This document shows, piece after piece, positions 6,212 to 61,021 of a stretch of 64,000 nt of DNA. The translations under genes and the position numbers were made by a program. The notes under the pieces were generated by a model that worked only from the letters and a program-made list of their open reading frames with translations, was not told the origin of the DNA and did no database searches. The stretch is from an uncultured Actinomycetes bacterium (lineage in GTDB: Bacteria; Actinomycetota; Acidimicrobiia; IMCC26256; PALSA-555): assembly GCA_963821325.1 (NCBI GenBank), contig CAWGDC010000006.1, positions 474,060 to 538,059 of the forward strand, read 5' to 3'. The number at the start of each line of letters is the position of its first letter. The stretch's first letter is position 1.

Positions 6212-6341
6212 CCAGACCACGACCCGCCGCCGGTCGCTTGACTCGTTAGAAATCCCTTGGGGCTACTACCTCGAGAGCCTCCGGCGCCTGTGCGCCACCG
6301 GCACCGGCCAACCGTTCCGCCCCGCGACCTGAAGGACCGGC

Positions 6342-7028
6342 GTGCACCAGACCCGACTCGACGAGCCGTCCGACTACCGCGACCGGCGCGAAGCGCTGCG
6401 CCTCGCTGAGATCGAGCTCATGCGCCAGCGCGAGCGCGTCGCCGCGCTCCGCCGCGCCCTGCCTCCCGGCGCGCTCGTCGACGACTACGTCTTCGAGGAA
6501 GGGCCGGCACGCCTCGACGACGGGGACACGCCGACCACCACGGTCCGGCTCACCGAGCTGTTCCGCTCGCCGTCCCGGCCGCTGCTCATCTACCACTTCA
6601 TGTACGGCAAGGCCCAGACCGAGGCCTGCCCGATGTGCACGCTCTGGATCGACGGGTTCAACAGCGTCGCGACCCACCTGGCCCAGAACGCCGACCTCGC
6701 GATCGCGGCCGCCGCCGACGTCCCGACCCTCCGCGCGCACGCGCGGCACCGCGGCTGGGACCGGCTCCGCCTCCTCAGCTGCGCCGGGAGCACCTTCAAG
6801 TACGACCTCGGCAGCGAGGACCCGGACGGCGTCCAGGACTCCACCATCTCGGTCTTCACCCTCGACCCCGACGGACGGCCGCGGCACACCTACACCGCGC
6901 ACCCGACCATGGCGCCCGACATCAACGAGCGAGGCATCGACCTGCTCTCGCCGGTCTGGCACCTCCTCGACCTCACGCCCCAGGGGCGCGGCGACTGGTA
7001 CGCGCGGCTCGAGTACCCGTCCACCTGA
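6342..7028 (+). CDS. DUF899-type thioredoxin-like protein
   Basis: ORF 6342..7028. It contains YRDRREALRLAEIELMRQRERVAALRRALP...DDYVF and a CPMC motif, typical of DUF899. Confidence 0.75.
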   Translation: MHQTRLDEPSDYRDRREALRLAEIELMRQRERVAALRRALPPGALVDDYVFEEGPARLDDGDTPTTTVRLTELFRSPSRPLLIYHFMYGKAQTEACPMCTLWIDGFNSVATHLAQNADLAIAAAADVPTLRAHARHRGWDRLRLLSCAGSTFKYDLGSEDPDGVQDSTISVFTLDPDGRPRHTYTAHPTMAPDINERGIDLLSPVWHLLDLTPQGRGDWYARLEYPST

Positions 7029-9321: not shown

Positions 9322-9981
9322 TCAGAAGAGGCGCAGGTCGGGCGGCGCGTCGGCGCGCAACCCGTCGAGGTCGACCTCCCGGCACTCGACCCCACGACTC
9401 TCGGCGAACACCCTGGCCTGCGGTTTCACGCGGGTCGCGACGAGCATCGCCCGGATGGGGGCGAGCGAGCCGTCCCGGTCGAGGCGTTCCTTGTAGCGGA
9501 GCAGCTGCTCGACGCCGGCGATCTCGGCGACCCGCTTCACCTCGACCGCGACGGCGGTCCCGTCGCCGTCGCGGCACAACAAGTCGACGGGCCCGACGTC
9601 CGTCGGGTACTCGCGGCGCACGAGCCGCCAGTCGGCCCCGAGGGTCTGCACCTGCGCCGCCAGCAGCGCCTGCAGCTCCGCCTCCACACCGTCCTTCGCG
9701 AGGCCCGGGTCCTCACCGAGCTCGAAGGACGAATCGAAGACCACCTCGTGCAGCTCGACGGCCAGCCGCTCCCCGGCCGGGTTGGTGGCGACCAGCGTCC
9801 CGTCGGTCTCGACGATCGAGCACGGCGGGCTCATCCAATTGAGCGGCTTGTACGCCTTGGCGTCCGCGTGGATCGCGATCGACCCGTCGTCCTTCACGAG
9901 GATGAGGCGCCGCGCCTCGGGCAGGCGGGCGCCGAGCCGCCCGGTGTACACGACCGAGCACCGCGCCACGACCAGCCGCAC
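9322..9981 (-). CDS. nucS: endonuclease NucS (EndoMS)
   Basis: ORF 9322..9981(-). It begins MRLVVARCSVVYTGRLGARLPEARRLILVKDDGSIAIHAD and contains DLLCRD..G..VAVEVKR, matching NucS. Confidence 0.95.
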   Translation of the reverse strand: MRLVVARCSVVYTGRLGARLPEARRLILVKDDGSIAIHADAKAYKPLNWMSPPCSIVETDGTLVATNPAGERLAVELHEVVFDSSFELGEDPGLAKDGVEAELQALLAAQVQTLGADWRLVRREYPTDVGPVDLLCRDGDGTAVAVEVKRVAEIAGVEQLLRYKERLDRDGSLAPIRAMLVATRVKPQARVFAESRGVECREVDLDGLRADAPPDLRLF

Positions 9982-10059
9982 GGCGCGTTCGTACCACGCC
10001 CGCCACGGTGCCGGGATCTACGATGCCCCCGGCCCGACCGCCGACCGGGGGTGAGGCAC

Positions 10060-10578
10060 ATGCTGGCCACCTACAACAGCGACCTCTACAACATCGTGAA
10101 GGTGCTGCACATCCTGTGCGCCATCATCGGGTTCGGGGGTGTGCTGCTCAACGGCGTCTACGGCGCGCAGGCCAAAGCGCCGCGGCGGCCGCGAGGCCGC
10201 CGCGATCGGGCACGCCGTGTTTCGCGTGTCCACGATTGCCGAGTACTTCATCTACGCCGTGTTCCTCCTCGGCCTCGCGCTGGTCGGCCTCGGCAACAAC
10301 CTCTTCGACTTCGGCCAGACCTGGATCTGGCTGTCGATCGTCCTCTTCATCGCGGCGCTCGGCCTCTCGCACGGGGCGCTGCGCCCCGCGTCCGTCGCAT
10401 GAACGCGCTGCTCGACGAGCTCGCCGAGGTCCCCGCCCGTGGCAGCGGCCCGCCGCCGCAGGCCGCCGAGCTCGACGCGATCACGAAGCAGATCGCCATC
10501 GTGGAAGCCATCCTCGACGTGGTCTTCGTCGTCCTCCTGGTCTTCATGGTCTTCAAGCCCGGCGGGCCGCGCCTCTGA
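10060..10578 (+). pseudogene. small 4-TM membrane protein (DUF2269-like, tentative) with two compensating frameshifts
   Basis: ATG at 10060 (MLATYNSDLYNIVKVLHILCAIIGFGGVLLNGVYGAQAK). The sensible middle is in another frame (ORF 10139..10402: REAAAIGHAVFRVSTIAEYFIYAVFLLGLALVGLGNNLFDFGQTWIWLSIVLFIAALGLSHGAL). The C-terminus returns to the first frame (MNALLDELAEV...ILDVVFVVLLVFMVFKPGG*). The shifts are near 10175 and 10395. Confidence 0.6.
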
Positions 10579-10621: not shown

Positions 10622-10897
10622 GTGAACTTCTACGGCCAGGTGCTGCTCGAGCTGACGACCGCGCTCGGCGCGGCGCTGTTCGTCGCCAACGCGTACGCGC
10701 TGCTCCGACGCGGCGCGGACCGACAACGCGCCGCGCGGGAATCCGCGTCCCGGTCCCGTCCCGGCAGCCCCGTCCGCAAGCAGGTCCGTGTCGCCACGAC
10801 CGGCAACCTGCCGCAGGCGCCCGTGGCCCGGACCGCGACGTTCATGGTGCTCGGCCTTGGCGTCGCGATCGTCGGTCTCGCCTCGCTCACGCACTGA
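10622..10897 (+). CDS. hypothetical small membrane protein
   Basis: GTG at 10622 in the frame of ORF 10439..10897. Two hydrophobic segments (LLELTTALGAALFVANAYALL and TFMVLGLGVAIVGLASL). No family recognised. Confidence 0.35.
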   Translation: MNFYGQVLLELTTALGAALFVANAYALLRRGADRQRAARESASRSRPGSPVRKQVRVATTGNLPQAPVARTATFMVLGLGVAIVGLASLTH

Positions 10898-11027: not shown

Positions 11028-12652
11028 ATGCCCCGCGACGTCCTGCACGACCTCGTCACGACCCCCGCGCGCCGCGGCGAGTACCTCCGCCTCGGCCACT
11101 GGGACGACCGCACCCTCGCCGGGCAGGTCCGCCGCCACGCGGCGACACGACCCGATCGTCCCGCCGTGATCGACGACGCCGACCGGATCCACACCTACCG
11201 GGACCTGGCGAGCGACGCCGGCCGCGTCGCGGCCCAGCTGGCGGCGCGGGCGTGGAGGCCGGCGACGTCGTGTCCGTCCAGCTCCCGAACTGGTACGAGA
11301 CCGTCGTCGTCGCGGTCGCCGTCCAGGCCGTGGGCGCCGTCATCAACCCGCTGCTGCCCAACTACCGACGTCGGGAGCTGCACCCACGTCTTCACGACGG
11401 CCCGTCCCGCCGCCATCGTCACGCCCACCGAGTACCGCGGCTTCGACCACGTGGCCCTCGTCGACGAGGTGGTCGCCGCCACCGGTGTGGCCCCCCACCA
11501 CGTCGCGCGTCGGCCCGAGCGGTTCCCGCGGCGTGACCCTGGAGGAGCTCCGCAGCGGGCCCGACACGCCGCTCGGCCCCGGCCCGAACGCCGCGGCGGT
11601 GTCCGAGCTCATCTTCACGTCGGGGACCGAGGCCAGCCCGAAGGCGATCATGCACACCGAGCAGACGGCCAACTTCAGCGTGCGCGTCGCCTACCGCGAT
11701 CTCGGCCTGACCGGCGACGACGTCGTGTGGATGCCGTCGCCCGTCGGCCACTCCACCGGCTTCAACTACGGGCTGCGCTTCGCGCTCTACCACGGGCTGC
11801 CGCTCGTGCTGCAGGACCGGTGGGACGCCGCCGCGGCGATCCGTCTCGCCCGCGACCATCACGCCACCTACACCCTGGCCGCCACCACGTTCCTCCAGGA
11901 CCTCGTCGAGGAGGCCGGCCGGTGCCGCGTGCGGCTCCCCGAGCTGCGCTGCTTCGGCTGCGGCGGCGCGCCCGTCCCGCCGGACCTCGTCCACGCCGCC
12001 GGCGACGTCGGCATCAACGTCCTGCGCCTCTACGGCTCCACCGAGGTGCTCGTCGCGACGTGGAACCGGCCCGGCAGCCCAGCCCGGCAACGCACGGACA
12101 CCGACGGCGTGGCGATGAGCGACGTCGAGGTCGAGATCCGACGACGACGATGGGACGACCGCCCCCACGGGCGAACCCGGCGAGATCTACGTGCGCGGTC
12201 CGAACACCTGCGTCGGGTTCTTCCGCGACGCCGAGCGGACGGCCGCCACCTTCGACGACGCCGGCTGGGTGCGCAGCGGCGACCTCGGGGTGCTCGACGG
12301 CGCCGGCGTCTGACGGTCAGCGGACGCAAGAAGGAGATCATCATCCGCGGGGGCGTCAACATCGCGCCCCGCGAGATCGAGGAGCTGCTCGTCGCCTTGC
12401 CCGAGGTCGAGCGGGCCGCCGTCGTCGGCCTCCCCGATCGCCGCCTCGGGCGAGCGGGGCTGCGCCTGCCTGGTCCTGCGCCCCGGCGCGACGCTGACCT
12501 TCGAGACCCTCGTGGCGCGGCTCCGCGACACCGGCCTCGCGACCTACAAGCTGCCCGAGTCCCTGGCGATCCTCGACGCCCTGCCGACCACCGCGTCCGG
12601 CAAGGTGCAGAAGCACGAGATCGTCCGCGCGCTGACGAACGGCTCCTCGTGA
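11028..12652 (+). pseudogene. acyl-CoA synthetase / AMP-dependent ligase, about 6 frameshifts as written
   Basis: ATG at 11028. AMP-binding motifs are spread over three frames: IFTSGTEASPKAIMHTEQ, GEPGEIYVRGPNTCVGFFRD, SGRKKEIIIRGGVNIAPREIEE and LPTTASGKVQKHEI. Frame switches are near 11245, 11378, 11505, 12145, 12308 and 12460, several of them in short G or C runs. The span is 1625 nt, not a multiple of 3. Confidence 0.85.
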
Positions 12653-13468
12653 CCGCCCGCGACGCCCCGCTCGTCGTCGAGCGCCACGACCTCGGTGACG
12701 GCGCGACCGCGGCGGTGCTGCGCCTGAACCGTCCGGCGTCCCTGAACGCCATCGACTGGGACACGGTGCGCGCCCTCGACGCCGCCATCACCGACGTCGA
12801 CCGACGACGACGGCGTCCGGGTCGTCCTCGTGACCGGCACCGGCCGGGCCTTCAGCGGCGGCGGCGACCTGCAGAGCTACGTGACGCTCCAGCGCGACCC
12901 GGTCGCGTTCCCGCAGTTCGTCGCCGAGCTGCACACCACGTCTTCGGGCGGCTTCGTCGCCTCGCCGAGCCGGTGATCGCCCTCGTCAACGGCGTCACCG
13001 CCGCGGCGGGCCTCGAGCTGGTCCTCAACTGCGACTTCGCGCTCATCGCCCGGTCGGCGCGGATCGGCGACGCGCACCTCAACTTCGGGCAGATGGGCGG
13101 CGGTGGGGTGCTCACGCTCCTGCCGCGGGCGATCGGTCGGGCCCGGGCCACCGAGCTCCTCTTCACCGGCCGCTTCCTCGACGCCGACGACGCCGTCGCC
13201 TGGGGCCTGGCCACCCGCGTGGTCGACGACGGCGAGCTCCTCGACGCCGGCCTCGAGCTGGCGCGGGGCATCGCCGCGAAGAGCGCCCTGGCGCTGGCCA
13301 ACGCGAAGGAGGTGCTCGAGACGGTGTGGTCCCGCAACGCCAGCGTCGACGACGGCCTCGCGTACGAGCTCGAGCGCAACGCCGACTACTGCCTGACGTC
13401 CTACGACGCCCGCGAGGGCCTGGCTCGCCTTCGCCGAGAAGCGAGCACCCCGCTTCGAGGGCCGATGA
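12649..13468 (+). pseudogene. enoyl-CoA hydratase/isomerase family protein, about 3 frameshifts
   Basis: GTG at 12649 overlaps the preceding stop. The pieces are LRLNRPASLNAID, then (shifted) DDDGVRVVLVTGTGRAFSGGGDLQ, then back to PVIALVNGVTAAAGLELVLNCDFALI. The C-terminus GLAAFAEKRAPRFEGR* is in a third frame. The shifts are near 12800, 12945 and 13425. Confidence 0.85.
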
Positions 13469-13867
13469 GCCCCGAGACGGCGTCCGCCGCGCCCGAGGCC
13501 GACGCCGACAGCCAGTTCTACTGGGACGGCCTCCGCCGCCACCAGCTGCTCGTGCAGCAGTGCGCGAGCGTGCGGCGAGCACCGCTTCCCGCCGCTGCCC
13601 GCCTGCCCGGCCTGCGGAACCCCCGGCGGCACCGTCGTCGAGGTGGACGCGCGCGGGCGTGTCTACTCGTGGATCGTCGTGCACCGCGCCCTCGTCGACC
13701 GGTTCGCCGACGAGGTCCCGTACACGATCGTCGTCGTCGAGCTGGAGGCCGGATGCCGCGTGGTCGCACGGCTCGACCCGGCGACCGCGGTCGCCGCCGA
13801 CCTGCCCGTGCTCGGGCACTACGTCGACCACGGCGACTGGACCGAGCTGCGGTTCCGGGCGGCGTGA
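13465..13867 (+). pseudogene. DUF35 Zn-ribbon/OB-fold acyl-CoA-associated protein, 1 frameshift
   Basis: ATG at 13465 overlaps the preceding stop (ATGA). FYWDGLRRHQLLVQQCAS is followed, after a shift near 13570, by CGEHRFPPLPACPACG...RGRVYSWIVVH...VVVELEAG (ORF 13643..13867). Confidence 0.8.
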
Positions 13868-15019
13868 CCCGTCCCGCCCGCGCCGCGATCGCCGGGGTCG
13901 GCTACTCGCCGCTCACGCGCCGCTCCGGTCGCAGCGTCCTGGCGCAGGCCCTCGAGGCGTGCCGCGACGCGCTCGACGACGCGGGCCTCGCCCCGTCGGC
14001 GGTCGACGGCATCGCGAGCTTCATGCTCCTCCACGACTCCGTGCCGGCGCAGGCGGTCGCCACCGGCCTCGCCGTCCCCGGCCTGCGCTTCGCCGTCGAC
14101 GCGCAGCTCGGCGGCCAGGCGCCCTGCTACCTCGTCGGCCTCGCCGCGGCCGCCGTCGAAGGTGGCCACGCCGACGCCGTCCTCGTGTTCCGCGCCTGAA
14201 CGGCCGATCCGGCGCCCGCGTCGGCACGATGGCGTTCCCCGGCCCGGCCGCCCAGTACCGCTACCCGATCGGGTACGACGCCTACCTCATGTACGTCGCG
14301 ATGTGGGCCCAGCGGTTCCTGCTCGAGACGGGGCAAGGCCCCGAGGACCTCGGCGCGGTCGCGGTCGCGCAGCGGGCGTGGGCCGCCGACAACCCGCGGG
14401 CCGTCAAGCGCCAGCCGCTGAGCCTGGACGAGTACCTCGCCGCGCCGCTCGTCGTCGAGCCGTTCCGCGCCGACGACTGCACGACCGAGGTCGACGGCGC
14501 CTGCGCCGTGCTGGTCACCTCGCTCGAGCGGGCCCGGGACCTGCGCCACCCCCCGGCGAGCGTCGCGTCCTGGGCGTACCGAGCCGGCCCCCGGTCCGGC
14601 CTCGACATCGGTGACCATCTGCTGTGGCGGGACTACACGCGCAACTACACGACGTATCTGCGCGACGAGCTCTTCGCGGGGCGGGCGTCGTGCCGGCCGA
14701 CGTCGAGGTCGCCGAGATCTACGACTGCTTCACGAGCACCGTCCTCATGGGCCTCGAAGGGCTCGGCCTCACCGGACGGGGAGAGTCCGGCGGGCTCGTG
14801 CGCAGCGGCAGCACCGCCCGCGAGGGACGGCTACCGGTGAACACCCACGGCGGGCTCCTCGCCGAGGGCTACCTCCACGGGATGAACACCGTCGCCGAGG
14901 CCGCGCTCCAGGTCCAGGGCCGCGGCGGCCCGCGACAGGTGCCTCGTCACGACGTGTGCGTCGTCACCTCCGGCGCGCTCATGGACGGGTCGGCCCTCCT
15001 CCTCACCACGGACCGCTGA
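13864..15019 (+). pseudogene. thiolase-like lipid-transfer (Ltp/SCP-x type) protein, 2 frameshifts
   Basis: GTG at 13864 overlaps the preceding stop. AAIAGVGYSPLTRRSG is followed by shifts near 14195 and 14680. The C-terminus PVNTHGGLLAEGYLHGMNTVAEAALQ is in ORF 14624..15019. Confidence 0.8.
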
Positions 15020-15100
15020 CCGCCGCGGCACTCGGGCCGCGTGTGGCCCCGCTGGCGACGCCCGCGGGTCAGCAGCGCGCGACCTGCAGCGACAGTTTGG

Positions 15101-15177
15101 AGCGGGTGACGGGAATCGAACCCGGGTTCTCAGCTTGGGAACGGGCCACTGATGTGCTGACCTCGCCTACATGCCGC
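15101..15177 (-). pseudogene. degenerate tRNA-Gly copy (3-prime 41 nt nearly identical to tRNA-Gly at 15938-16008)
   Basis: 15101-15141 matches 15938-15978 at 40/41 positions (T-arm through anticodon loop TTCCCAA). The 5-prime half is only loosely related, with about 6 extra nt, and neither the acceptor stem nor the anticodon stem can pair. Confidence 0.6.
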
Positions 15178-15790
15178 CGCGGAACATGATCTGGTTGCGC
15201 ACCGCTCGGGCGATCATCGGCAGCACCGCGGGCTCGGTGACGCCGGCCGGGATCACCTCGCCGGCGACGATGAGCTGGGCACGCTCCATCAGCGGTCCCC
15301 AGGCCGGGGGTTCGCTCCCGGCGTACACCCGCGGGCGCGGCTCTGGGCCGTCGAGCCCCGTCTTGCCCCAGTGCTTGCCGGCCACGAGGATCGCGCCGAG
15401 CGCGGCGTCGCGCAGCGGGGGCGCCTGGCTGCCGCCGAGCGAGGTCTCCATGCGATGGAACACCGCGTCGCGCGCCGCGACATCGCGCACCTTGTAGCAC
15501 GGCAGGTTCCCCGTCGGGATGAGCCCGAGCAGCTTCTTGCGGGGCTCGTCAGCCTCGAGGCGCCCTGCCGCGACCAGCGGGTCGACGACCCGCTCCAACG
15601 CCCGTGAGGTCTCGCGCCGGATCGCGTGCACGAACTCGTCCTCGCTCGGCGCCGGGCCACCGTCCACCCACTCCTCTGCGAGCAGCGCACCGCAGATCGT
15701 GCTCCGCGAGCCGTCGTGTGCATACCCGATCTGGCGCCACTTGTCCGCCGGCAGCATGAGCAGCACCAGCTCGTCGGCGAACTCACCCAT
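15167..15790 (-). CDS. GPP34 (GOLPH3-like) family protein
   Basis: ATG at 15790 inside ORF 15167..16117(-). Key strings are MGEFADELVLLMLPAD..., LVAAGRLEADEPRKKLLGLIPTGNLPCYKVRD and PLRDAALGAILVAG, which fit the GPP34 pattern. Third-position GC is high. Confidence 0.65.
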   Translation of the reverse strand: MGEFADELVLLMLPADKWRQIGYAHDGSRSTICGALLAEEWVDGGPAPSEDEFVHAIRRETSRALERVVDPLVAAGRLEADEPRKKLLGLIPTGNLPCYKVRDVAARDAVFHRMETSLGGSQAPPLRDAALGAILVAGKHWGKTGLDGPEPRPRVYAGSEPPAWGPLMERAQLIVAGEVIPAGVTEPAVLPMIARAVRNQIMFRGGM

Positions 15791-15937
15791 GCGCGTCTCC
15801 TGGGTGGCCCTCGATTCGCATGCCCCGATCCTGCACCGCCGCGCGCGGCGGGCCCTGAGTAGGCGGTACTCAGTCGGCGAAGGCCGTTCCCCCGAATGGA
15901 GAGGGCGCAGCGGAGCGCTCAACCCGTCGTGCAACGG

Positions 15938-16008
15938 AGCGGGTGACGGGAATCGAACCCGCGTTCTCAGCTTGGGAAGCTGATGTTCTGCCGCTGAACT
16001 ACACCCGC
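15938..16008 (-). tRNA. tRNA-Gly (anticodon CCC)
   Basis: Hand fold of the reverse complement: acceptor GCGGGTG/CACCCGC, anticodon arm TCAGC-TTCCCAA-GCTGA, T-arm GCGGG-TTCGATT-CCCGT. 71 nt, no encoded CCA. Confidence 0.9.
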
Positions 16009-16135
16009 GCGTGGCCGGCGAGGCTAGCAAACGGCCTCGAAACCGACTCTTCGTGGTGCAACGCGCGGGTCGTCCGCGTGCCCGGTGGTCGGTCGCTCGG
16101 GCGGGACGCGGGACCAACCGTGGGGGTTGAGGCCG

Positions 16136-16918
16136 CTACCGCGCGGCCGGGTTCGTGACGAACTGACTCATGGGTGTGGTGTCGATGTGGATGAACCCGC
16201 GGAACGGGTAGTCGAGCCCGGCGACGAGGGCGAGCGTCATCGACAGTGCGATGGCGAGGGCCGCCAGGATGAGCAGGTGGGAGCGGCGATGGCGGGTGTC
16301 CATGGCCGCGGCGACCGCGAGCGTGGTGGCGGCGAGCACGGCGAGGATCGCGAACAGGGGAGCGGGGATCGTGGCCGTGGCCGCGTTCGTGAGCCGGCTC
16401 CGCGTCTGTGACACCTGGCCGAGCGCGGTGAGGATCTGCTGGTAGGCGGCCTGGTCGGACGCGGCGTGGGGTTCGATCGTCGCGACGACCCGGTAGAGCT
16501 GGTCGAGCGACGCGTCGGCCCGCGGGCTGGGCTGGGAGGTGCGCTCCAGGTACGGGAGCCCGTCACGCAGGTCCTCCTCGGCGTAGCGAAGCGCGGCGGC
16601 GCGGATGGCGGCGCCGTCCCGCCCGGGGAGGTTGCGACTGTTCTCGACCACGATGCTCAGCTCAGCGGCCTTGTCGGAGACCTGCGACTGGGCGCTGCGG
16701 AGCTGGGTGTACTCGTCGACGATCACGAAGGCGACGAGGACGGCGTAGATCGTCGCGAGCGCCTGCAGGGTGGTCGCCGCCGTCGGACCCGCACGGGCTC
16801 GGACGTCCGGCTGCAGCCGGCGGCGCAGGAGGCTGTCGACGCCGATCGTGAAGAGGAGCGCGCCGAAGGCGAACAGCGTGAAGAGCGCCCAGGCGGGCAA
16901 CGACCCGATCCAGGTCAT
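16136..16918 (-). CDS. DUF4239-like membrane protein
   Basis: ORF 16136..16918(-), 260 aa. TM helices lie at both ends around a soluble helical middle. The family call is tentative. Confidence 0.6.
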   Translation of the reverse strand: MTWIGSLPAWALFTLFAFGALLFTIGVDSLLRRRLQPDVRARAGPTAATTLQALATIYAVLVAFVIVDEYTQLRSAQSQVSDKAAELSIVVENSRNLPGRDGAAIRAAALRYAEEDLRDGLPYLERTSQPSPRADASLDQLYRVVATIEPHAASDQAAYQQILTALGQVSQTRSRLTNAATATIPAPLFAILAVLAATTLAVAAAMDTRHRRSHLLILAALAIALSMTLALVAGLDYPFRGFIHIDTTPMSQFVTNPAAR

Positions 16919-16921
16919 GGG

Positions 16922-19145
16922 TCAGGCAGACGGCGAGTCGGCCCGGGCCGGCTGGCCCGATGTCGAGCCGTGGTCGAGCGCGTCGAGCAGCACCTCGGCG
17001 ATGTCTTGGACCCGGACGTCGTCGTCGCGCTGGGCTTCCTTCACGCCGTCCTCGAGCATCACGTAGCAGAAGGGGCACGCGACGGCGATGCGGCTCGCCC
17101 CCGTCGCCAGCGCCTCCTGGGACCGCTCGGTGTTGACCTTCTTCCCGACGTGCTCCTCCATCCACATCCGGGCTCCGCCGGCGCCGCAGCACATCCCGCG
17201 TGTGCCGTTGCGGGGCATCTCGACGATCTCGATGCCGCGCAGCGACCCGACGACACGGCGTGGAGCGAGGTATACGTCGTTGTGACGGCCCAGGTAGCAG
17301 GAGTCGTGGTACGTCACCCGCTCCTCGAGCGAGGCACCGTCGAGGTTGAGTCGACCGTCGTCGATGAGTTCCATCAGCAGCTGCGAGTGGTGCACGACCT
17401 CGTAGTTCCCACCGAGCTGCGGGTACTCGTTCTTCAGCGTGTTGAAGCAGTGCGGGCACTGGGTGATGACCTTGCGGACGCCGAGCCCGTTCAACACCTC
17501 GATGTTCTGCATCGCCAGCATCTGGAAGATGTACTCGTTGCCCGACCGGCGAGCCGGGTCGCCCGTGCACAGCTCGCTCGGCCCGAGAATCGCGAAGTCG
17601 AGCCCGGCGCGCTGCAGCAGCGTGGCGACGGCCCGGCTGGCCCGCTTGTTGCGGTCGTCGAAGCTGCCGGCGCAGCCGACCCAGTACAGGTACTCGTGCT
17701 CGAGCGGGCCCGACGCGTCGATGATCGGTACGCCGTCGAGGTCGCGGGACCAGTCGGCCCGGTCCCCCTGGTTCATCCCGTAGACGTTCGCCGGAGTTCT
17801 CCATGGACCGGTAGGTGTTGCCCAGCTCGGTCGGGAAGTTGCTCTCCATCAGCGTCAGGTAGCGCCGCATGTCGAGGATCTTGTCGAGGATCTCGATGTC
17901 CACCGGGCAGATCTCGTCGCAGGCCTTGCAGGTCGTGCAGGCCCAGAGCTCGTCCGGCGTGATGCGCTCGAACACCGAGTCGGCACCGATCGTGATGTCA
18001 CGGTCGACGCCGACGGGGGGCGCGACGACCGGGTCACCGGTCGCGGCCATCACCTCCCCGACCTTCAGGACGATCTCGCGCGGGTCGAGCGGCTTCCCGG
18101 TGGCGTGCGCCGGACACACGGACGTGCACCGGCCACAGATCGTGCAGGCGTCCGTGTCGAACAGCTGCTTCCACGTGAAGTCCTCGACGGTCGAGGCCCC
18201 GAACGTCTCGAGCTCGGTCTCCATCAGGTTCGGCATCGGCCGCATCGCACCCTTCGGACGTTCCCGATCCCGCAGGTACATGTTCATCGGTGACGTGAAC
18301 ATGTGGCGCAGCTTCGTGGCCGGCAGGATCACCAGGAAGGCGACGAACGCCGCGGCGTGCACGATCCACATCGTGCGGTGCAGGTCCGACAGGGTGCTGT
18401 GCGACCAGTGCGCCCACAGGGCCGAGAGTCCCCAGCCGACGAAGGACCACTCCTCGAAATGGGGTCGGCCCTCCAGCGCGATCCGGAACCCCTCGATGAG
18501 GAATCCGGTGACCCCGATCAGGAGGAGCGTCCCCAGGATCACCGCGTCCTCGGGCTTGGTCTTGATCCGGATCCGGTAGGGCCGTACCAGGTAGCGGCGG
18601 CCGACCGCCCAGACGAGCCCGATGATGAAGACGATCCCGAAGAGGTTCGCGGTGGCCTTGTACGACTCGTAGACCGTGCCGTGCAGGAACTTCAGCGCCG
18701 GCGGCATCTGGTGGTCGATCTCGAGCACGACCGTCGCCGCGAACAGCACGAGGAACCCGAAGTAGATGCAGGCGTGCATGAGCCCGGCGGTCGGGTCCCG
18801 CAAGAGGGTGCGCATCCACACGCCCGACCGGAAGTCCCGGAGCCGGCGGTGCACGTTCGCACGAGTCGTGCGGCGGTCGTCCGGTCCGCCGCGCAGGTAG
18901 TTGCGGACCCGGGTCGAGGCGAGCCAGGCGCAGACGACGAGCATCACGGCGACGGTGCCGTAGAACAGCCAGTAGACGGGGTCGGGGATGTCGAAGAACG
19001 TCGTGCGGGACACCCGCGAGGTGTCGGTCCACTGCGTCACCCGCGGGATCACGCCGGAGGCGATCGTTCCCGCGGCGACGAGGACGCCAAGGAGGAGGAC
19101 GAGCTGGCTCGGCTTCAGCGGGAAGCGGCGCCGCACGCTGAGCAA
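16922..19145 (-). CDS. fused membrane / 4Fe-4S / CCG-domain iron-sulfur reductase (Rv0338c-like), apparent 1-nt insertion near 17790
   Basis: The N-terminal 450 aa of ORF 16662..19145(-) hold a polytopic membrane domain and two ferredoxin-type Cys clusters (CTICGRCTSVCP, CTTCKACDEICP). The sequence continues after NTYRSMENSG in ORF 16922..17776(-), which has two CCG motifs (WVGCAG, HDSCYLGR, CCGAGG). The span is 2224 nt. Confidence 0.85.
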
Positions 19146-19200
19146 CCTAGCGCCGGCCTGTTGCCGCGGCGGGATGGTGCGGGCGCGGTCGCCCGCCGGC

Positions 19201-19623
19201 TCACTGCGGCGACTTGGCGTCGTACTCGCGCAGGCGGTGGGCCAGGCCGGTCAGCAGCTTGTGCGCGAAGCCCGGCACCTCGTCGATCATGGCGGCGAAC
19301 TCGCGTTGGCCGAGGACCGCGAGGTCCATGTCGGTCTCGGCCGTCACCGTCGCGTTGCGGGGTGCCCGGTCGAGGAGGGCTAGGTCGCCGAAGAACGCGT
19401 TGGGTCCGAGCGTGGCGACCTTCTTGCCGTGGCGGGAGACGGTCGCGGTCCCGTTGATGATCACGAAGAACTCCGCCCCGGCCGCGCCCTCCCGGACCAG
19501 CACCTTCCCGGCGGGCACGTGGACCCGCTCGGTCCGCTTGCCGAGGAGCTCGAGTTCCTTGCGGGAGCAGGCCGAGAAGAGTGGAACCCCGGCCAGGTCG
19601 GGCAGGGCGCTTCGCCGCGGCAT
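19201..19623 (-). CDS. stand-alone cyclic-nucleotide-binding (CAP effector) domain protein
   Basis: ORF 19201..19623(-), 140 aa. It has GKVLVREGAAGAEFFVIINGTATV...FFGDLALLDRAPRNATV and no DNA-binding domain. Confidence 0.85.
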   Translation of the reverse strand: MPRRSALPDLAGVPLFSACSRKELELLGKRTERVHVPAGKVLVREGAAGAEFFVIINGTATVSRHGKKVATLGPNAFFGDLALLDRAPRNATVTAETDMDLAVLGQREFAAMIDEVPGFAHKLLTGLAHRLREYDAKSPQ

Positions 19624-32535: not shown

Positions 32536-32799
32536 GTGCGCTTCGAAGCCCGGATCGAGGTGATCCACCGTGCCGGGGTCCTCGATCCGCAGGGCGCGAC
32601 CGTCGAGCGGACGCTGCCCATGCTCGGCTACGACGGGGTGCGTGACGTGCGCATCGGCAAATGCATCCGCCTGACCCTGGACGCCGACGACCGCGCCGCG
32701 GCCCGAGCCGAGGTCGAGGCGATGTGCGAGCGCCTGCTCGTGAACCCGGTCATCGAGGCCTACGAGATCGAGCTGACCGAGCTCGCGCCGGTCAGCTGA
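32536..32799 (+). CDS. purS: phosphoribosylformylglycinamidine synthase subunit PurS
   Basis: ORF 32536..32799, 87 aa, with GVLDPQG and NPVIE. Confidence 0.9.
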   Translation: MRFEARIEVIHRAGVLDPQGATVERTLPMLGYDGVRDVRIGKCIRLTLDADDRAAARAEVEAMCERLLVNPVIEAYEIELTELAPVS

Positions 32800-32801
32800 C
32801 G

Positions 32802-33498
32802 GTGGGCGCCCGAGTCGCCGTCGTCGTGTTCCCGGGGACGAACTGCGAGCTCGACGTCGCCGCCGCGCTCGAGGCCCTCGGCGGCACCCCCGAGCTCGTG
32901 TTCCACACCGAGACTCGCCTGCCGCGGCGTCGACGCCGTCGTCCTCCCCGGCGGCTTCGCCCACGGCGACTACCTGCGCGCCGGCGCGATCGCCCGCTTC
33001 TCGCCGATCATGGCCGCGGTCGCCGAGCACGCCGCGGCCGGCGGGCCGCTCGTGGGCATCTGCAACGGCTTCCAGATCCTCACCGAGGCCGGGCTGCTGC
33101 CGGGTGCCCTGCAGCAGAACACCGGCCTGAAGTTCCTCTGCCGCACCGTCGAGTGCCGCGTCGAGAGCACGCGCTCCGCGCTGACCCGCGGCGCGCCCGC
33201 CGGCGCGGTGCTGCGCCTCCCGATCAACCACTTCGAGGGCGCCTACCGCTGCGACGCGCCCACCCTCGAGCGGCTGCGCGCCGAGGACCGCGTGGTGCTC
33301 CGCTACGTCGACAACCCCAACGGCAGCCTCGACGCCATCGCCGGTGTGACCAACGACGCGGGCAACGTCGTGGGGCTCATGCCCCATCCCGAGCGGGCAT
33401 CCGACGCGCTGCTCGGCTCGACCGACGGCATCGTGCTCCTCGAATCGCTGCTCGACGCGCGCGACCGCTGCGCCGGTGTGATCAGGCGCCCCGGCTGA
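32802..33498 (+). CDS. purQ: phosphoribosylformylglycinamidine synthase subunit PurQ (apparent frameshift near 32920)
   Basis: GTG at 32802 opens VAVVVFPGTNCELDVAAALEALGG. After HTETRL the frame switches to GVDAVVLPGGFAHGDYLRAGAIA...GICNGFQIL...MPHPER (ORF 33010..33498). The span is 697 nt. Confidence 0.9.
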
Positions 33499-33872: not shown

Positions 33873-33968
33873 CGGCCTGGGTGCCATTGGTCGTCCTCAG
33901 CGCTCGTCCATTTCCCCAATTCTTGCACCCGGCATTTGCAAAAATCGAGTCGTCGGTAGGCTCGCCAC

Positions 33969-36196
33969 GTGCTGAGCACGGAGCCGCTGCACCGGGCGCT
34001 CGGCCTCACCGACGAGGAGCTGGCGGCCATCGTCGAGCTCCTGGGGCGGGACCCGTCCGAGCTCGAGCTCGCCATGTACGCCGTGCTGTGGTCCGAGCAC
34101 TGCTCGTATAAGTCCTCGAAGGTGCACCTCCGCCGACTGGCGAGCGACGCCCCCTGGGTGCTCGTCGGACCCGGGGAGGGCGCCGGCGTGATCGACGTCG
34201 GCGACGGGCTGGCCGTCGCCGTGCGGATCGAGAGCCACAACCACCCGTCGGCCGTCGAGCCCTACCAGGGGGCCGCCACCGGCGTCGGCGGCATCATCCG
34301 CGATGTCTTCTCCATGGGCGCCCGACCGATCGCGCTGATGGACCCGCTGTGCTTCGGGCCGCTCGATCAGCCCCGCAGCCGGTACCTCTGCGAGCAGGTC
34401 GTCGCCGGCATCAGCGGCTACGGCAACGCCGTCGGGGTCCCCACCGTCGGCGGGGAGCTCACCGTCGACGGGTGCTACGCCGGCAACCCGATCGTCAACG
34501 TGCTCTGCCTCGGCATCGCGCCCCACGAGCGGCTCGTCCAAGCGCGCGCCGGCGCCGCGGGGAACCTCGCCGTGCTCCTCGGCTCCTCCACCGGCCGGGA
34601 CGGCATCGGCGGTGCGAGCGTCCTCGCCTCCGCCGGGTTCGCCGCCGACTCCGACGAGAAGCGCCCCGCCGTCCAGGTCGGCGACCCGTTCGAGGAGAAG
34701 CGGCTCATCGAGACGTGCCTGGCGCTCCTCGACGCCGGGCTCGCCGTCGGGATCCAAGACCTCGGGGCCGGTGGGCTGTCGTGCGCCGCGTCGGAGATCG
34801 CCGCGAAGAGCGGCCTCGGCATGGACGTCGACCTCGCCCGGGTCGCCCGGCGCGAGCCGCACATGACGCCCGTCGAGGTCATGACCTCCGAGAGCCAGGA
34901 GCGCATGCTCGCCGTCGTCGAGCCGCGCCACCTCGACGCGATCGTCGCCATCTGCGACCGGTGGGACGTCCGCGCCACGGTCGTGGGACACGTGACCGAC
35001 CGCGGACGCTTCCGGGTCGTCGACGGCGCGTTCGACGGCGGGCCCGACGAGGCGCTCGCCGACGTGCCCGCCGCCAGCCTCGGTGACGGGCCCGTGTACA
35101 CGCGGCCCCTCGCCCGCCCCGACACCCAGGACGGACTGAACGACGCCGACCCGTGGCCGAGCCTGCACGGCGCGTACCCCGACGGCGCCGACCTCGGCCC
35201 CGAGCTGCTCGCCCTGCTCGCCAGCCCGAGCATCGCCGACAAGTCCTGGGTCTTCGGCCAGTACGACCACCAGCTGTTCCTGAACACCGTCGTCGGACCC
35301 GGCGGTGACGCCACCGTGCTGCGCCTCCCCGGCACCCGGCGCGCGCTCGCGCTGAGCACCGACGGGTCGGCCCGCTTCTGTCGTCTCGACCCGCGCGTCG
35401 GTGGACGGCTGGCCGTGCTCGAGGCCGCCCGCAACGTGGCGTGCGTCGGCGCCATTCCCCGCGCCGTCGTCAACTGCCTCAACTTCGGCAACCCGGAGCA
35501 CCCCACGGTGATGTGGCAGTTCAGCGAGGTCGTCGACGGGATCCGCGACGCGTGCCAGGCGCTCGCGTCCCCGTCATCGGCGGCAACGTCAGCTTCTACA
35601 ACGAGTCCCACGGCGCGGACATCGACCCGACCCCCGTGATCGGCGTCCTCGGGCTGCTCGAGCCGCTCGACACCGTGCCGCCCCCCGCCGCGCTCGGCCC
35701 CGGGCAGGCCGTCGTGCTCCTCGGTGCCACCACGCCCGAGCTGGGCGGCTCGGCGTGGGCCACCCGCCACCAGCTCGGCGGCGGACGACCACCCGCCGCC
35801 GACCTCGACGCCGCGGTCGCGGTGCATGACCTCGTGCGCGGCCTCGTCGCCGACCGGTCGGTGCGGGGGGTGCACGACTGCGCCGACGGTGGCCTCGCCG
35901 TCGCCCTCGCCGAGATGGCGATCCACGGAGCGTGCGGGTGCACCGTCACGCCGTCGGCGACCCACCCGGCCGCCGTCGGGTGCTTCTCGGAGTCGGCGTC
36001 GCGGGTCCTGGTGACCGTCGACCCCCCTACCCTCGACGCGTTGCTCGAGCGGGCGGCCGCCGCCGGGGTCGCTGCCGCCGAGCTCGGCTCGGCCGGCGGC
36101 CGCCGCGTCCACGTCGACGGCGCCCTCGACCTCGACGTCGACGACCTGACCCGTGCGTGGCGCGACAGCCTCCCGGCGACGCTCGAGCAGCCCTGA
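33969..36196 (+). CDS. purL: phosphoribosylformylglycinamidine synthase subunit PurL (apparent 1-nt deletion near 35565)
   Basis: ORF 33969..35639 (EHCSYKSSK, ESHNHPS, GGIIRD) continues after ACQAL in ORF 35441..36196 (VPVIGGNVSFYNE...). The span is 2228 nt. Confidence 0.93.
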
Positions 36197-36214: not shown

Positions 36215-38926
36215 TCAGGACTGATGCAGGTAGACGCGACGCTCGTCGCTCGTCAGCGTGCGCACCACGCGGCTCCGGGCGAGCCGCAGCGTCGCGTCGA
36301 TCGGACCGCACTCGAGACAGTGCCAGATCCGCACGGTGCCGTCGCTCGTCGCCGTCGCGAACCGGGTGCCGTCCGGGCTGAACGCCACCGAGGTGACCCG
36401 TGCCGGCTGGCGGAACACGACCGGCGGTGTTCCGGGATCGCGCCAGTCCCACAGCGAGGCGGTTCCGTCGCTGCTCCCGGTGAGGAGCTGGCGGCCGTCA
36501 CGGCTGAACGCCACGCTGTTCAGCGCGTCGGTCTGACGCAGGACGACCGGCGCGGCGTGCGAGTTCCGCAGGTCGTAGACCTGCGCGGTGCCGTCGATGC
36601 TGGCGGTCGCGAGGCGTGCCCCGTCCGGGCTGAAGGCGACGCCCTCGATCGCGCCGCTCTGATAGAGGAAGATCGGCGTGGCGCGCGGGTGCTGCCAGTC
36701 CCACACCCCGGCTGAGGCGTCGAGGCTCGCGGTCCCCAGCCGGGTGCCGCGACGGTTGAACGTGACGCCGACCAAGTCGTCGGTATGACCCGTGAGCACG
36801 ATCGGGGCACGCGCGGGCTGGCGCAGGTCCCAGACCCGTGCGTCGTCGTCGGATCCGGCGGTGGCGAGGTCGTGGCCGTCGGGGCTGAACGCCACGGCGT
36901 ACACGGGTCCCGGCTGCGCGAGCAGGAGAGGCGCGGTCGCGGGGTGGCGCCAGTCCCAGACCGCGGCGAGGCCGTCGATGCTGCCCGTCGCCAGGCGCGT
37001 CCCGTCGGGGCTGAACGCCACCCCGAACACGGTGCCACCCTTCGCGCCGACCACCACGGGGGGCGCGGCCGGGTTGCGCGAGTCCCAGACCGACGCCGTC
37101 CCGTCGAAGTTGGCGCTAGCCACGTGAACGCCGTCCGGGCCGAACGCGACGCTGTTCACCGGCCCGCCGGTCGCCGGCAGCGTCACCGGGTCGGTGTCCG
37201 GTCGTGACCGGTCCCAGACCCGCACCGTCTGGTCCGCGCTCGCGGTCGCGATCTCGGTGCCGTCCGGGCTGCACGCGATGCCCAGGACGGCGTCGGTGTG
37301 GCCGAGCAGCGGCGTCGGGTCGAGTGTCGGGTGGCGCCAATCCCAGAGCTGGGCGACGCGGTCGCTGGCGGCGACGGCCAACGTGTCGTCACGGGTGAAG
37401 GCCACACCGGTCGCGGGGCTCGTCAGGTGGAGCACCACCGGTGGCTGGCCGGGCTGCTGCCACGTCCAGACCGACGCGGTCCCGTCCGCCCCCGCGGTCG
37501 CGACGTGGGCACCGTCCGGGCTGAACGCGACGCCGGCGAGCGCCGCGGTGCTCGGCAGGCTCGTCGGCGTGACCTCGGGAGACCGCCAGCTCCACACGGT
37601 CGCCGTGCCGCCGCTGCCGCTCACGGCGATCTCGTTGCCGTCGGGGCTGAATGCCACCCCCGTGAGACCACTGCCCAGCCGAAGGGCGGTCGGCGGCGTG
37701 CCGGGATGCGCCCAGTCCCACACCGACGCGGTCCCATCCGTGCTCGACGTCGCGAGGAAGCGGCCGTCGGGGCTGAACGCCACCCCGGTGACCGCCCCGC
37801 CGGGCCGGAGCACGGTCGGTGCGCCCGTCGGGTGCCGCCAGTCCCACACCCGCGCGGTGCCGTCGGCTCCGGCGGTGGCGAGCTTCGAGCCGCTGGGGTC
37901 GAACGCGACGGCGTTGACCCCGTTGGTGATTGCCGTGAGCACGACGGGCTTCGCGCTCGGGTGATGCCAGTCCCAGATCCGGGCGGTCCCGTCCGCGCTT
38001 CCGCTGGCGAGATGTGCGCCGTCGGGGCTGAACGCGACGGCGCGGACGATGTCGGTGTGCCCGGTGAGGACCGCCCGCTCGCGGTTCTCGAGGGTCGCCT
38101 GGCGCACGGCGGCCTGCGCCTCGACGGTCGGGCGGGTGTCGTCGGCCTGGAGCGCCAAGAGGAGGCTGAGCTGCGGGTCGGCGTTCAGCTGCGCGTTGGC
38201 GCTCGCCGCCAGCTCCCGTGAGAGCGCGACCTGGGCGGTGTTGTGCGCGTGGACGGCTTGGACCACGGCGACGACGGCCAGCGCGGCGATGAGCACCGTC
38301 GCGGTCAACGCGGCCGCCACGACTCGTCGCAGCCGGCCGGTCGCGGACTGGCGGCTCACCAGCACGAACCGTCGCTGCGCCGACGTCGGCGCGGGACGGT
38401 GGTCGGCGTGGAGCTGCAACGCGGCTTCGGCGTCGCTCAAGTCGGAGCCGCGCAGCACGAGGCTGCGGTCCTCGCCCTTCGTCTCCCACTCCAGGGCCCG
38501 CACGAGGAGCCGGGTGTGGGTCTTCACCCATTCGAGGTCCGTGTCGAGGGCCTCGACGATCCGGGGGAGGCTGTTCTCGCGCTCCCGCTTCGTCCGGCAG
38601 AACACCCAGTTGTGCGATGCGACGGCCGGGGGGAGCCGGCGCTCGCCCGGGCTGCGCACCAGCAGCGGGATGATCCGCTTGTTCAGCTCGACCGCGTGGG
38701 CGAGCTCCTCTCGGCAGACCGGCGAGTCCAACGAGTGCGGGGTGATCACGAACACGAAGGCGCCGGAGCCCTCGATCGCGCCGTGCACCTCGTCTCGCCA
38801 CTCCGCGCTCGGGGGGATCCCCTCCCAGTCGACCCACACGTCGCGGGTCTGGCTCGTGAGCACGTCGACCAGCCAACGCACGAATTGCTGGTCCTCGCGG
38901 GCGTACGAGACGAAGACGTCGCTCAC
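36215..38926 (-). CDS. TIR domain - single TM helix - 14x WD40 repeat protein
   Basis: ORF 36215..39379(-). GTG at 38926 is chosen as start (GGAG 8 nt upstream; the upstream 151 aa are Arg/Pro/Gly junk). The TIR domain is about 38654-38920 (VFVSYAREDQQF...FVFVITPHSLDSPVCREELAHAVELNKRIIPLLV). The TM helix is about 38252-38323. Fourteen WD40 units span 36317-38068. The C-terminal tail reads CLECGP...RTLTSDERRVYL. Confidence 0.85.
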   Translation of the reverse strand: MSDVFVSYAREDQQFVRWLVDVLTSQTRDVWVDWEGIPPSAEWRDEVHGAIEGSGAFVFVITPHSLDSPVCREELAHAVELNKRIIPLLVRSPGERRLPPAVASHNWVFCRTKRERENSLPRIVEALDTDLEWVKTHTRLLVRALEWETKGEDRSLVLRGSDLSDAEAALQLHADHRPAPTSAQRRFVLVSRQSATGRLRRVVAAALTATVLIAALAVVAVVQAVHAHNTAQVALSRELAASANAQLNADPQLSLLLALQADDTRPTVEAQAAVRQATLENRERAVLTGHTDIVRAVAFSPDGAHLASGSADGTARIWDWHHPSAKPVVLTAITNGVNAVAFDPSGSKLATAGADGTARVWDWRHPTGAPTVLRPGGAVTGVAFSPDGRFLATSSTDGTASVWDWAHPGTPPTALRLGSGLTGVAFSPDGNEIAVSGSGGTATVWSWRSPEVTPTSLPSTAALAGVAFSPDGAHVATAGADGTASVWTWQQPGQPPVVLHLTSPATGVAFTRDDTLAVAASDRVAQLWDWRHPTLDPTPLLGHTDAVLGIACSPDGTEIATASADQTVRVWDRSRPDTDPVTLPATGGPVNSVAFGPDGVHVASANFDGTASVWDSRNPAAPPVVVGAKGGTVFGVAFSPDGTRLATGSIDGLAAVWDWRHPATAPLLLAQPGPVYAVAFSPDGHDLATAGSDDDARVWDLRQPARAPIVLTGHTDDLVGVTFNRRGTRLGTASLDASAGVWDWQHPRATPIFLYQSGAIEGVAFSPDGARLATASIDGTAQVYDLRNSHAAPVVLRQTDALNSVAFSRDGRQLLTGSSDGTASLWDWRDPGTPPVVFRQPARVTSVAFSPDGTRFATATSDGTVRIWHCLECGPIDATLRLARSRVVRTLTSDERRVYLHQS
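36317..38068 (-). repeat. intragenic tandem array of 14 WD40-coding units (126-129 nt period)
   Basis: Seen in translation: VAFSPDG is exact in 8 of 14 units, and DGTA..W.W-like strands occur in most units. Confidence 0.85.
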
Positions 38927-39242
38927 CCGCGCCGCTCCCGCGACCCAGAGCGAGGGATCGGCACGCGAGCCGGCGGTGCCTGACGCGCGGTGCTCGACGC
39001 CCACGACGACCGCGGGACGTCTCCCCGTGCCTCCCTGCCCACGGCGACCATCTTGGTCGGCGCCGCCGCGCGCCGGCCCGCAGGTGGTTGTCTCGTCGGT
39101 GGGCGTGCGGGAGACTGCGCCCGGCACGAGGGCCGGGCGGCACGGCGGGCGGCGTCGTCCGCCTCGACGTGGGACCGTCGCCGGGGTGGCGGCGGCCGCG
39201 GGGCGCGGCCGAGCAGCAGGTCGGTGGGGGAGCGAGGCCACG

Positions 39243-40727: not shown

Positions 40728-40822
40728 CCCCCGCGGGCCGCGACCGCGGCGACGCGAGCAGCTCCGTCCCGGGTCGACACCCCAGAACGGGGCCGCGCGA
40801 CCCCCGTGGGATACTGGACCCG

Positions 40823-47182: not shown

Positions 47183-47493
47183 CGTCGTCTCCCGTTCGCG
47201 GCCGCCCCACGTTACGGCCGTCCGGCCGGGTCTTCTCACCGGCTTCGCGCGCCGTTCACGGGTCGGTCACGCGACCGCAACCGGCGCCGGGCACCATCGG
47301 GGGACCAGCGCGACGCCCGCCGGGCCGGTACCGCTTCCCCCCGGCCGGCCCACGGGCGTCGCCTCCGGTACCGAGGCTCCCCTCGGCCATCGCGACGGCG
47401 ACGGCCCACCTGAGCGGCCAGGTCGGGATCGGGCGGTCCGGATTCGTTGCGCCAGAACGGCCGCGAGACGCCTCGTGCCATGATGCCCGCCCG

Positions 47494-49133: not shown

Positions 49134-49206
49134 CCCGGCCCGACGGCGACCCGACACCCGCTCGTGTACCGTCCGCGGTCGTGCCCACCCCGAAGACCGG
49201 CGCCTG

Positions 49207-50130: not shown

Positions 50131-50132
50131 GC

Positions 50133-58901: not shown

Positions 58902-58913
58902 GAGCCAAGAACG

Positions 58914-61019: not shown

Positions 61020-61021
61020 TC

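Follow-up and report, generated by a model that had tools for sequence, protein, structure and literature searches.

In the window, the 64,000-nt stretch of DNA analysed here, an operon of four genes on the plus strand encodes an AMP-binding acyl-CoA ligase (11028–12652; 540 aa, this and the following lengths being those after correction), an enoyl-CoA hydratase of the crotonase family (12649–13468; 271 aa), a DUF35/ChsH2-type protein with a zinc ribbon and an OB-fold (13465–13867; 133 aa) and an Ltp/SCP-x-type thiolase-like protein (13864–15019; 385 aa). Upstream of the operon and on the same strand lie a DUF2269 membrane-protein gene (10060–10578) and, between it and the ligase gene, an intact gene for a 91-aa membrane protein (10622–10897) that is conserved in the relatives L002 and L003. 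A GC3 frame plot and a seven-state Viterbi segmentation revealed frame switches without stop codons across 11028–15019, every fragment of the operon genes being open in its own frame.

The sites of these lesions were located by DNA alignment to intact orthologous contigs, three with 93–95% nucleotide identity (L002, L004 and L005) and one with 84% (L003). This gave 14 indels between 10179 and 14679, thirteen of 1 nt and one of 2 nt, which together break five genes. The ligase gene has six of them (1-nt deletions at 11248 and 12309, 1-nt insertions at 11380, 11504, 12144 and 12448), the hydratase gene three (1-nt insertions at 12803 and 13422, a 2-nt insertion at 12941), the DUF35 gene one (a 1-nt insertion at 13568) and the thiolase gene two (1-nt deletions at 14196 and 14679). 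All twelve frameshifts that the initial annotation had placed in 11028–15019 were thus recovered, each within 12 nt of its predicted position and with the same count for each gene. The same annotation had described the lesions as concentrated in the operon. The clustering is real, since 14 of the 18 frameshifts detected in the window sit inside 4.5 kb, a roughly 46-fold enrichment in a single stretch (chance P ≤ 3e-11), but the indels respect neither the limits of genes nor those of the operon. The cluster extends into the DUF2269 gene, a separate transcription unit, where alignment to L002 and L003 placed one inserted nucleotide at 10179 and one deleted nucleotide at 10384, with 68 codons left out of frame. 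Insertions outnumber deletions 9:5 in the cluster and 12:6 over all 18 frameshifts of the window. Few of the indels fall in homopolymer runs of at least three bases, contrary to the earlier impression that several sit in short G or C runs.

Once the 14 edits are made, each of the five genes regains the length of its orthologues as a single open reading frame without an in-frame stop, and the operon genes show 4-nt GTGA/ATGA start/stop overlaps, an overlap of starts and stops having been noted from the raw sequence. The corrected operon proteins match Pfam families end to end (AMP-binding, profile positions 2–382 of 384; ECH_1; zf-ChsH2 and OB_ChsH2_C; Thiolase_C_1), which bears out the four identities originally assigned, and the corrected DUF2269 protein matches PF10027 over profile positions 2–150 of 150. 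The order ligase–hydratase–DUF35–thiolase is conserved in relatives. Pairs of Ltp/SCP-x thiolase-like and DUF35 proteins that occur with a CoA ligase and a hydratase are known from the Ltp2–ChsH2(DUF35) system of steroid side-chain degradation and from BbsAB-type systems. The window operon holds the same four domain families, but its proteins all score below the curated NCBIfam equivalog cut-offs, the best being 313 bits against a cut-off of 469 for lipid-transfer protein and 378 against 792 for cyclohexanecarboxylate-CoA ligase, so that no substrate-specific assignment is made. A protein search also showed that ligase–hydratase fusion proteins occur naturally in related bacteria.

Outside the cluster, isolated frameshifts break four further genes. 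On the plus strand, panB (ketopantoate hydroxymethyltransferase; 1423–2241) has a 1-nt insertion near 1657, and its corrected product matches PF02548 over profile positions 9–258 of 259; purQ (32794–33466) has a 1-nt insertion near 32913, and its corrected product matches PF13507 in one stretch; purL (33965–36190) has a 1-nt deletion near 35565, with a motif that spans the break (...DACQALA|VPVIGGNVSFYN...). On the minus strand, a gene for an Fe-S/CCG-type oxidoreductase (16969–19202) has a 1-nt insertion near 17787, again within a motif that continues across the break (...SMENSG|NVYGMNQ...). Three essential genes, panB, purQ and purL, carry one frameshift each. The initial annotation had contrasted the broken operon with long unbroken neighbours. 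This is correct for dnaB, dnaK and clpB, but these four genes show that the remainder of the window is not free of frameshifts. It had also listed kdpD/A/B as unbroken; the region at 39–43 kb is not kdp but encodes a membrane protein, PurF and PurM. A further frame switch called by the HMM, at 46460/46545, is no frameshift but the normal boundary between an MsrA and a DinB-like gene.

A second module on the plus strand (47487–51998) encodes a thiolase-like protein, a DUF35 protein, an NAD-epimerase, an amidohydrolase and an enoyl-CoA hydratase. It is intact, as had been claimed. Its proteins are, however, only 33–36% identical to their frameshifted counterparts and have different partner genes (the epimerase and the amidohydrolase), so that it is distantly related rather than the redundant paralogue that had been suggested.

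Since the indels of the cluster behave like local consensus errors of a long-read metagenome assembly, the finding most likely reflects data quality and not the decay of an operon. Of the two explanations put forward in the initial annotation, a local assembly-quality problem and the recent inactivation of a redundant pathway, it is the former that is favoured, and a local consensus artefact brought about by low read depth or mixed strains is, in our judgement, highly probable. We infer that the source assembly of the window was a long-read one, a reading with which the length of its contig, 0.2–1 Mb, is in line. The genome behind the window would be a metagenome-assembled one of Acidimicrobiia type, with residual Nanopore-type indel errors left in its consensus, for the most part at about one per 15 kb of contig, and the ~4.5 kb between 10.18 and 14.68 kb would be a stretch of poorly supported consensus in which about one error per 320 nt has been retained. 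The likely cause of this local accumulation would be that read depth drops here, that reads from co-occurring strains are mixed in the pile-up, or both. Four of the nine clustered insertions juxtapose two alleles of a site that is variable among relatives (binomial P = 0.011), as where the window reads CTGC, L002 CTC and L003 CTG. This hints at a mixed-strain consensus, although the signal is modest and depends on alignment choices. Mis-polishing from a close repeat was considered and rejected, the rest of the window having no match to the cluster above 70% identity except for a 43-nt tRNA fragment. In the organism itself, the four-gene operon and the DUF2269 gene upstream of it are therefore most likely unbroken and functional.

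Frameshift-causing indels are documented in Nanopore consensus sequences (Sereika et al., 2022, PMC9262707), and the Microflora Danica (MFD) metagenome-assembled genomes (MAGs) are Flye assemblies that underwent one round of Medaka polishing without short reads (PMC12313526). The frame-HMM applied to the window was run on 74 homologous loci, 25 from these Nanopore-only MFD MAGs and 49 from short-read or other assemblies. The 25 MFD loci gave 112 frameshift candidates in 531 kb (2.1 per 10 kb) and as many as 9 in a single 4.5-kb patch, whereas the 49 short-read or other loci gave 13 candidates in 801 kb, i.e. 0.16 per 10 kb, and never two within 4.5 kb (Mann–Whitney P = 2e-8). By the same criterion, the window has 2.03 candidates per 10 kb and 8 in its patch. 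Among the 74 loci, patches of 7–9 candidates per 4.5 kb are restricted to Nanopore-only ones, and the patch of the window lies at the dense end of the MFD range (8 against a maximum of 9). The lesions of the window resemble errors in Nanopore-only MAGs in several respects. They are 1–2-nt indels through which gene calls become truncated or fused, they are patchy on the contig, they strike essential genes and, at about 2 per 10 kb, they are as dense as those of the 25 MFD loci. They differ from such errors in that most lie outside long homopolymers.

A base-level view of such patches came from L087, a syntenic locus from a long-read-style assembly. Its indels of length other than 3n relative to the locus of an Illumina MAG number, per successive kb, 12, 8, 6, 0, 2, 2, 6, 2, 6, 7, 11, 3 and 2, and comparison of L087 with L006, which is another assembly of its species (97.5% identity), gave a similar number of indels in a similar pattern per kb. 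Only 20 indels separate L006 itself from the Illumina locus, so that most of the L087 indels are private to L087. This shows that indel patches of the kind seen in the window occur as noise in the same locus and lineage. Since candidates in L087 fall in the same genes as in the window, a locus-specific cause was considered. It was rejected, both because base-level alignment shows L087 to be equally noisy at its other end and because the operon holds 35 of the 112 MFD candidates against the 26% expected from the fraction of the locus length that it occupies.

A first alternative is recent and genuine pseudogenisation, in which a dispensable operon would have gathered independent frameshifts that became fixed in the population. 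The sequence does, after all, contain the indels, most of them in catabolic genes of an accessory kind, and further thiolase, DUF35 and hydratase genes are found in the window, although the supposed back-up is the distant module described above. Several frameshifts per gene in co-directional neighbours are also reminiscent of pseudogene decay in reductive genomes. Decaying bacterial pseudogenes, however, tend towards a dN/dS of 1 and accumulate nonsense codons and larger deletions, with a bias towards deletion, none of which is seen here. The corrected frames of the five affected genes contain no nonsense codon, alignment to the orthologous contigs revealed no 3n or larger deletion in the cluster, where no indel exceeds 2 nt, and the balance of insertions over deletions runs the other way. 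Against the 93–95% relatives, dN/dS is 0.17–0.26 for the ligase, hydratase and thiolase genes and 0.63 for the DUF35 gene, the latter from only 17 changes. The pattern of substitutions is one of normal purifying selection, in line with values of 0.16 between relatives and 0.10–0.23 for flanking genes.

When lineage-specific substitutions were polarised with L003 as outgroup, the lineage of the window showed 35.5 synonymous and 19.5 nonsynonymous changes and that of its relative 57.5 and 27.5, respectively (Fisher P = 0.72), i.e. nonsynonymous to synonymous count ratios of 0.55 and 0.48. No relaxation of selection on the lineage of the window was thus detected relative to the intact 93–95% orthologues, though dN/dS would stay the same even if real indels had arisen in a burst very recently. 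Independent neutral indels are another matter, since 14 of them would be expected to come with dozens of neutral substitutions, and under a natural-indel model with at least three substitutions for each, a count of no more than 20 nonsynonymous changes would be most unlikely (P ≤ 3e-6). A comparison with orthologous loci in close relatives, which had been proposed at the outset, points the same way. The operon is intact in all the close relatives compared, and those at 93–95% identity lack the lesions. Finally, the decay of a catabolic operon is difficult to reconcile with the broken DUF2269 gene outside it, or with the essential panB, purQ and purL genes being broken likewise elsewhere in the window. 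Genuine pseudogenisation is, therefore, improbable.

It is also conceivable that all 14 indels are genuine products of a single localised shower in a recent ancestor, e.g. during error-prone repair synthesis over ~4.5 kb of a soil Acidimicrobiia chromosome after a DNA break, and that the five genes were inactivated too recently for a substitution signal to have built up. Such an event would account for the tight clustering (P ≤ 3e-11), and the absence of a long-term signal of neutral evolution fits a single recent episode. It would not account for the same kind of isolated indel in four other genes across the window, nor for the fact that similar patches are common in relatives when their contigs are Nanopore-only but absent when they are short-read, the indels of L087 being moreover largely not common to the second assembly of its species. 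No mark of a break or repair site was found in the sequence. We regard both the shower and the simultaneous, very recent inactivation that it implies as very improbable. Programmed ribosomal frameshifting or transcriptional slippage restoring the frame at each site, for which the only point in favour is that each fragment is open in its own frame, is contradicted by twelve sites of mixed sign (+1, +2 and −1) without a slippery heptamer or an A/T run and by the orthologues in L002–L005 and L007, where each of these proteins is read from one frame throughout, and its likelihood is negligible.

The distinction between a consensus artefact and gene decay matters for annotation. Taken at face value, this locus would yield four or five pseudogene annotations and imply that a catabolic pathway for lipids or alicyclic acids had been lost, and the frameshifts in purQ, purL and panB would suggest auxotrophies. 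Before gene decay is claimed, clusters of frameshifts in long-read MAGs thus need a check at the level of reads or a correction guided by orthologues. The tests used here require no reads and can be reused elsewhere, namely lineage-specific counts of synonymous and nonsynonymous changes, the balance of insertions and deletions, the spill of lesions over gene borders and the comparison with short-read assemblies of relatives.

Copies of the locus from the same strain were also sought. A search with the DUF35 protein returned nothing above 92% identity, and exact look-ups of the 91-aa protein (in two forms), PurS and NucS gave no match, the start codons used in these look-ups being guesses that may be wrong. 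The one independent sequence of the same strain that was recovered is a Logan contig (L001, from SRR28002808), which aligns to the window over 15973–17461, outside all the indel sites, with one mismatch and no gaps (99.93% identity over 1.5 kb).

The window has a G+C content of 72-73%, which makes the reading frame legible from third-position GC, and both a frame plot and a seven-state Viterbi segmentation (frame-HMM) revealed many stop-free frame switches on the + strand between 11.0 and 15.0 kb. Joining the in-frame pieces yields four proteins encoded on that strand: an AMP-binding acyl-CoA ligase (PF00501 profile positions 2-382 of 384, plus PF13193), an enoyl-CoA hydratase of the crotonase family, a DUF35/ChsH2-type protein with zinc-ribbon and OB-fold, and a thiolase-like protein in which Thiolase_C_1 is present. 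The NCBIfam neighbourhoods of the ligase (medium-chain or cyclohexanecarboxylate-CoA ligases), hydratase (EchA19-like hydratases) and thiolase ('lipid-transfer protein' thiolases) were all reached with scores under the curated cut-offs. Taken together, the genes for CoA ligase, hydratase, DUF35 and Ltp-thiolase make up a conserved catabolic operon of an ordinary kind. Natural fusions of ligase and enoyl-CoA hydratase, ~800-830 aa long, occur in related Actinomycetota (proteins P0223-P0230), which supports a functional coupling of its first two genes.

A protein search showed that both soil metagenomes and Acidimicrobiia MAGs contain intact orthologues. Three of the homologous contigs (L002, L004 and L005) share 93-95% DNA identity with the window, while a fourth (L003, 84%) carries the complete syntenic locus with every gene intact, in the order NucS, DUF2269, a 91-aa gene, ligase, hydratase, DUF35 and thiolase, the operon genes being joined by 4-nt overlaps. 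Global alignments to orthologous contigs, a comparison that the initial annotation had proposed, placed the lesions exactly: in the ligase at 11248 (-1), 11380 (+1), 11504 (+1), 12144 (+1), 12309 (-1) and 12448 (+1), in the hydratase at 12803 (+1), 12941 (+2) and 13422 (+1), in DUF35 at 13568 (+1) and in the thiolase at 14196 (-1) and 14679 (-1). All twelve frameshift positions originally reported for the four genes were thereby recovered to within 12 nt, and the observation extends slightly beyond them, to the rest of the window and to a separate gene upstream of the operon, DUF2269 (10179, +1; 10384, -1). The 14 edits restore full-length ORFs of 172, 540, 271, 133 and 385 aa with the expected GTGA/ATGA overlaps and zero in-frame stops.

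Outside the operon, the segmentation flagged further switches, four of which are true frameshifts in the sequence: in panB (near 1657), whose corrected product spans positions 9-258 of the 259 in the PF02548 profile, in an Fe-S/CCG oxidoreductase gene (near 17787), in purQ (near 32913) and in purL (near 35565). A normal boundary between two genes accounts for another flagged switch (46460/46545). Three of the four genes hit outside the cluster are biosynthetic; they are broken by lesions identical to those of the cluster, and otherwise seem fully conserved. In total, 18 frameshifts were detected, 14 of them inside 4.5 kb, a clustering far above chance (P <= 3e-11).

Very probably, the cluster reflects consensus indel errors that gathered locally in a metagenome assembly built from long reads. 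A local assembly-quality problem was one of two readings offered by the initial annotation, and it is supported by the breakage of DUF2269 and of biosynthetic genes, by normal dN/dS and by a frameshift density like that of the Microflora Danica (MFD) long-read MAGs. A scan of GTDB representative genomes gave 80 homologous loci, to which one frame-HMM and one criterion were applied throughout. The 25 MFD loci held 112 frameshift candidates in 531 kb (2.1 per 10 kb), with patches of up to 9 per 4.5 kb (L039 and L085; 7 in L067), whereas 49 loci from isolates or with short-read-style contig names held 13 in 801 kb (0.16 per 10 kb) and never two within 4.5 kb (Mann-Whitney P = 2e-8). The window has 13 candidates in 64 kb (2.03 per 10 kb), eight of which lie in the patch. 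The MFD MAGs were assembled with Flye from Nanopore reads alone and polished once with Medaka (PMC12313526), and frameshifted gene calls from Nanopore consensus indels are well documented (PMC9262707).

Indel noise in patches also occurs at this same locus and lineage. L087, a contig with a long-read naming style that is syntenic with the window, shares 97.5% identity with the MFD locus L006. When it is compared with L007, the locus of an Illumina MAG, its non-3n indels per kb number 12, 8, 6, 0, 2, 2, 6, 2, 6, 7, 11, 3 and 2, and against L006 a comparable number follows a nearly identical pattern, whereas L006 and L007 differ by only 20 indels; most of the indels are therefore private to L087. 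Long-read-style public contigs of relatives (L086, ENA ERZ25039545; L087, ERZ25039570; MFD loci L039, L067, L083 and L085) have 5-19 frameshift candidates per 10 kb and run-on gene calls, for example a 563-aa fusion of DUF35 and thiolase and a 982-aa 'protein' made up of AMP-binding, ECH and DUF35 pieces; products of this kind stand in protein databases as if genuine.

The other reading, recent inactivation of a redundant pathway, is unsupported, and genuine pseudogenisation in general appears very unlikely. The 'paralogous module' at 47.5-52.0 kb (thiolase-like, DUF35, NAD-epimerase, amidohydrolase and hydratase genes) is indeed intact, but its proteins share no more than 33-36% identity with their counterparts in the frameshifted operon; they are distant family members with a differing gene context and not a redundant copy. 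Nor is there a sign of relaxed selection. In codon alignments with close relatives, dN/dS of the corrected ligase, hydratase and thiolase was 0.17-0.26 (0.63 for DUF35, a value resting on 17 changes only), which matches relative-versus-relative (0.16) and flanking-gene values (0.10-0.23). With L003 as outgroup, the window lineage has 35.5 synonymous and 19.5 nonsynonymous changes, versus 57.5 and 27.5 in the relatives' lineages (Fisher P = 0.72). Bacterial mutation spectra comprise several substitutions for each indel, and had 14 neutral indels accumulated with at least three substitutions each, 20 or fewer nonsynonymous changes would be too few (P about 3e-6). Pseudogenes show a deletion bias, whereas insertions outnumber deletions in the cluster (9 versus 5; 12 versus 6 in the whole window), the longest indel is 2 nt and the alignments contain no 3n-length indel in coding sequence. 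A real, localised indel shower is more improbable still.

As to how a patch of consensus errors could have arisen, its extent, about that of one long read, would be consistent with locally reduced read depth. Alternatively, reads from co-occurring strains might have produced a mixed pile-up. Four of the nine clustered insertions juxtapose both alleles found at that site in close relatives (CTGC versus CTC and CTG; GGGC versus GGG and GGC; CGAC versus CAC and GAC; AGCG versus ACG and GCG), with a chance of 0.107 per insertion (binomial P = 0.011), which is no more than suggestive of the mixed-strain pile-up. No close repeat of the cluster region was found elsewhere in the 64-kb window. The contig from which the window derives measures 0.2-1 Mb. 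An independent Logan contig (SRR28002808) aligns to 15973-17461 without gaps and with a single mismatch, over a span that includes zero indel sites.

Several neighbouring features deserve mention. The NucS/EndoMS mismatch-repair nuclease gene (9325-10006, - strand), directly upstream of the error cluster and on the opposite strand, appears intact. The corresponding NucS call in L087 is cut down to 63 aa, with an HMM frameshift candidate (7192) just upstream. Downstream of the operon, the 3' part of tRNA-Gly(ccc) (15936-16008, - strand) recurs as a 43-nt direct repeat, 98% identical (15099-15141 and 15936-15978), bracketing a ~0.8-kb segment with a GPP34-like gene (15167-15790, - strand), an arrangement suggestive of a small insertion at the tRNA that left an att-site remnant. 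The thiolase of L006 and L007 has the tRNA directly after it; L004 has the GPP34 gene but lacks the partial tRNA copy; dS between the GPP34 genes of the window and L004 is 0.37, far above that of the operon genes covered by L004 (0.06-0.15). The segment 6258-7040, with a DUF899-family gene (6339-7025, + strand), has no counterpart in L006, L007 and L087, which are syntenic; this small lineage-specific insertion separates dnaB from the conserved block that follows. A large protein with a TIR_2 domain and about 11-14 WD40 repeats is encoded at about 36218-38900 (- strand; the longest ORF, 36215-39379, probably begins upstream of the true start), an architecture that may be linked to defence or signalling. 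A membrane protein, purF and purM, and not the kdp genes, occupy 39227-43345; segments with the lengths expected of putative kdpA, kdpB and kdpC lie at 57214-61793, with zero internal switches by the frame-HMM.
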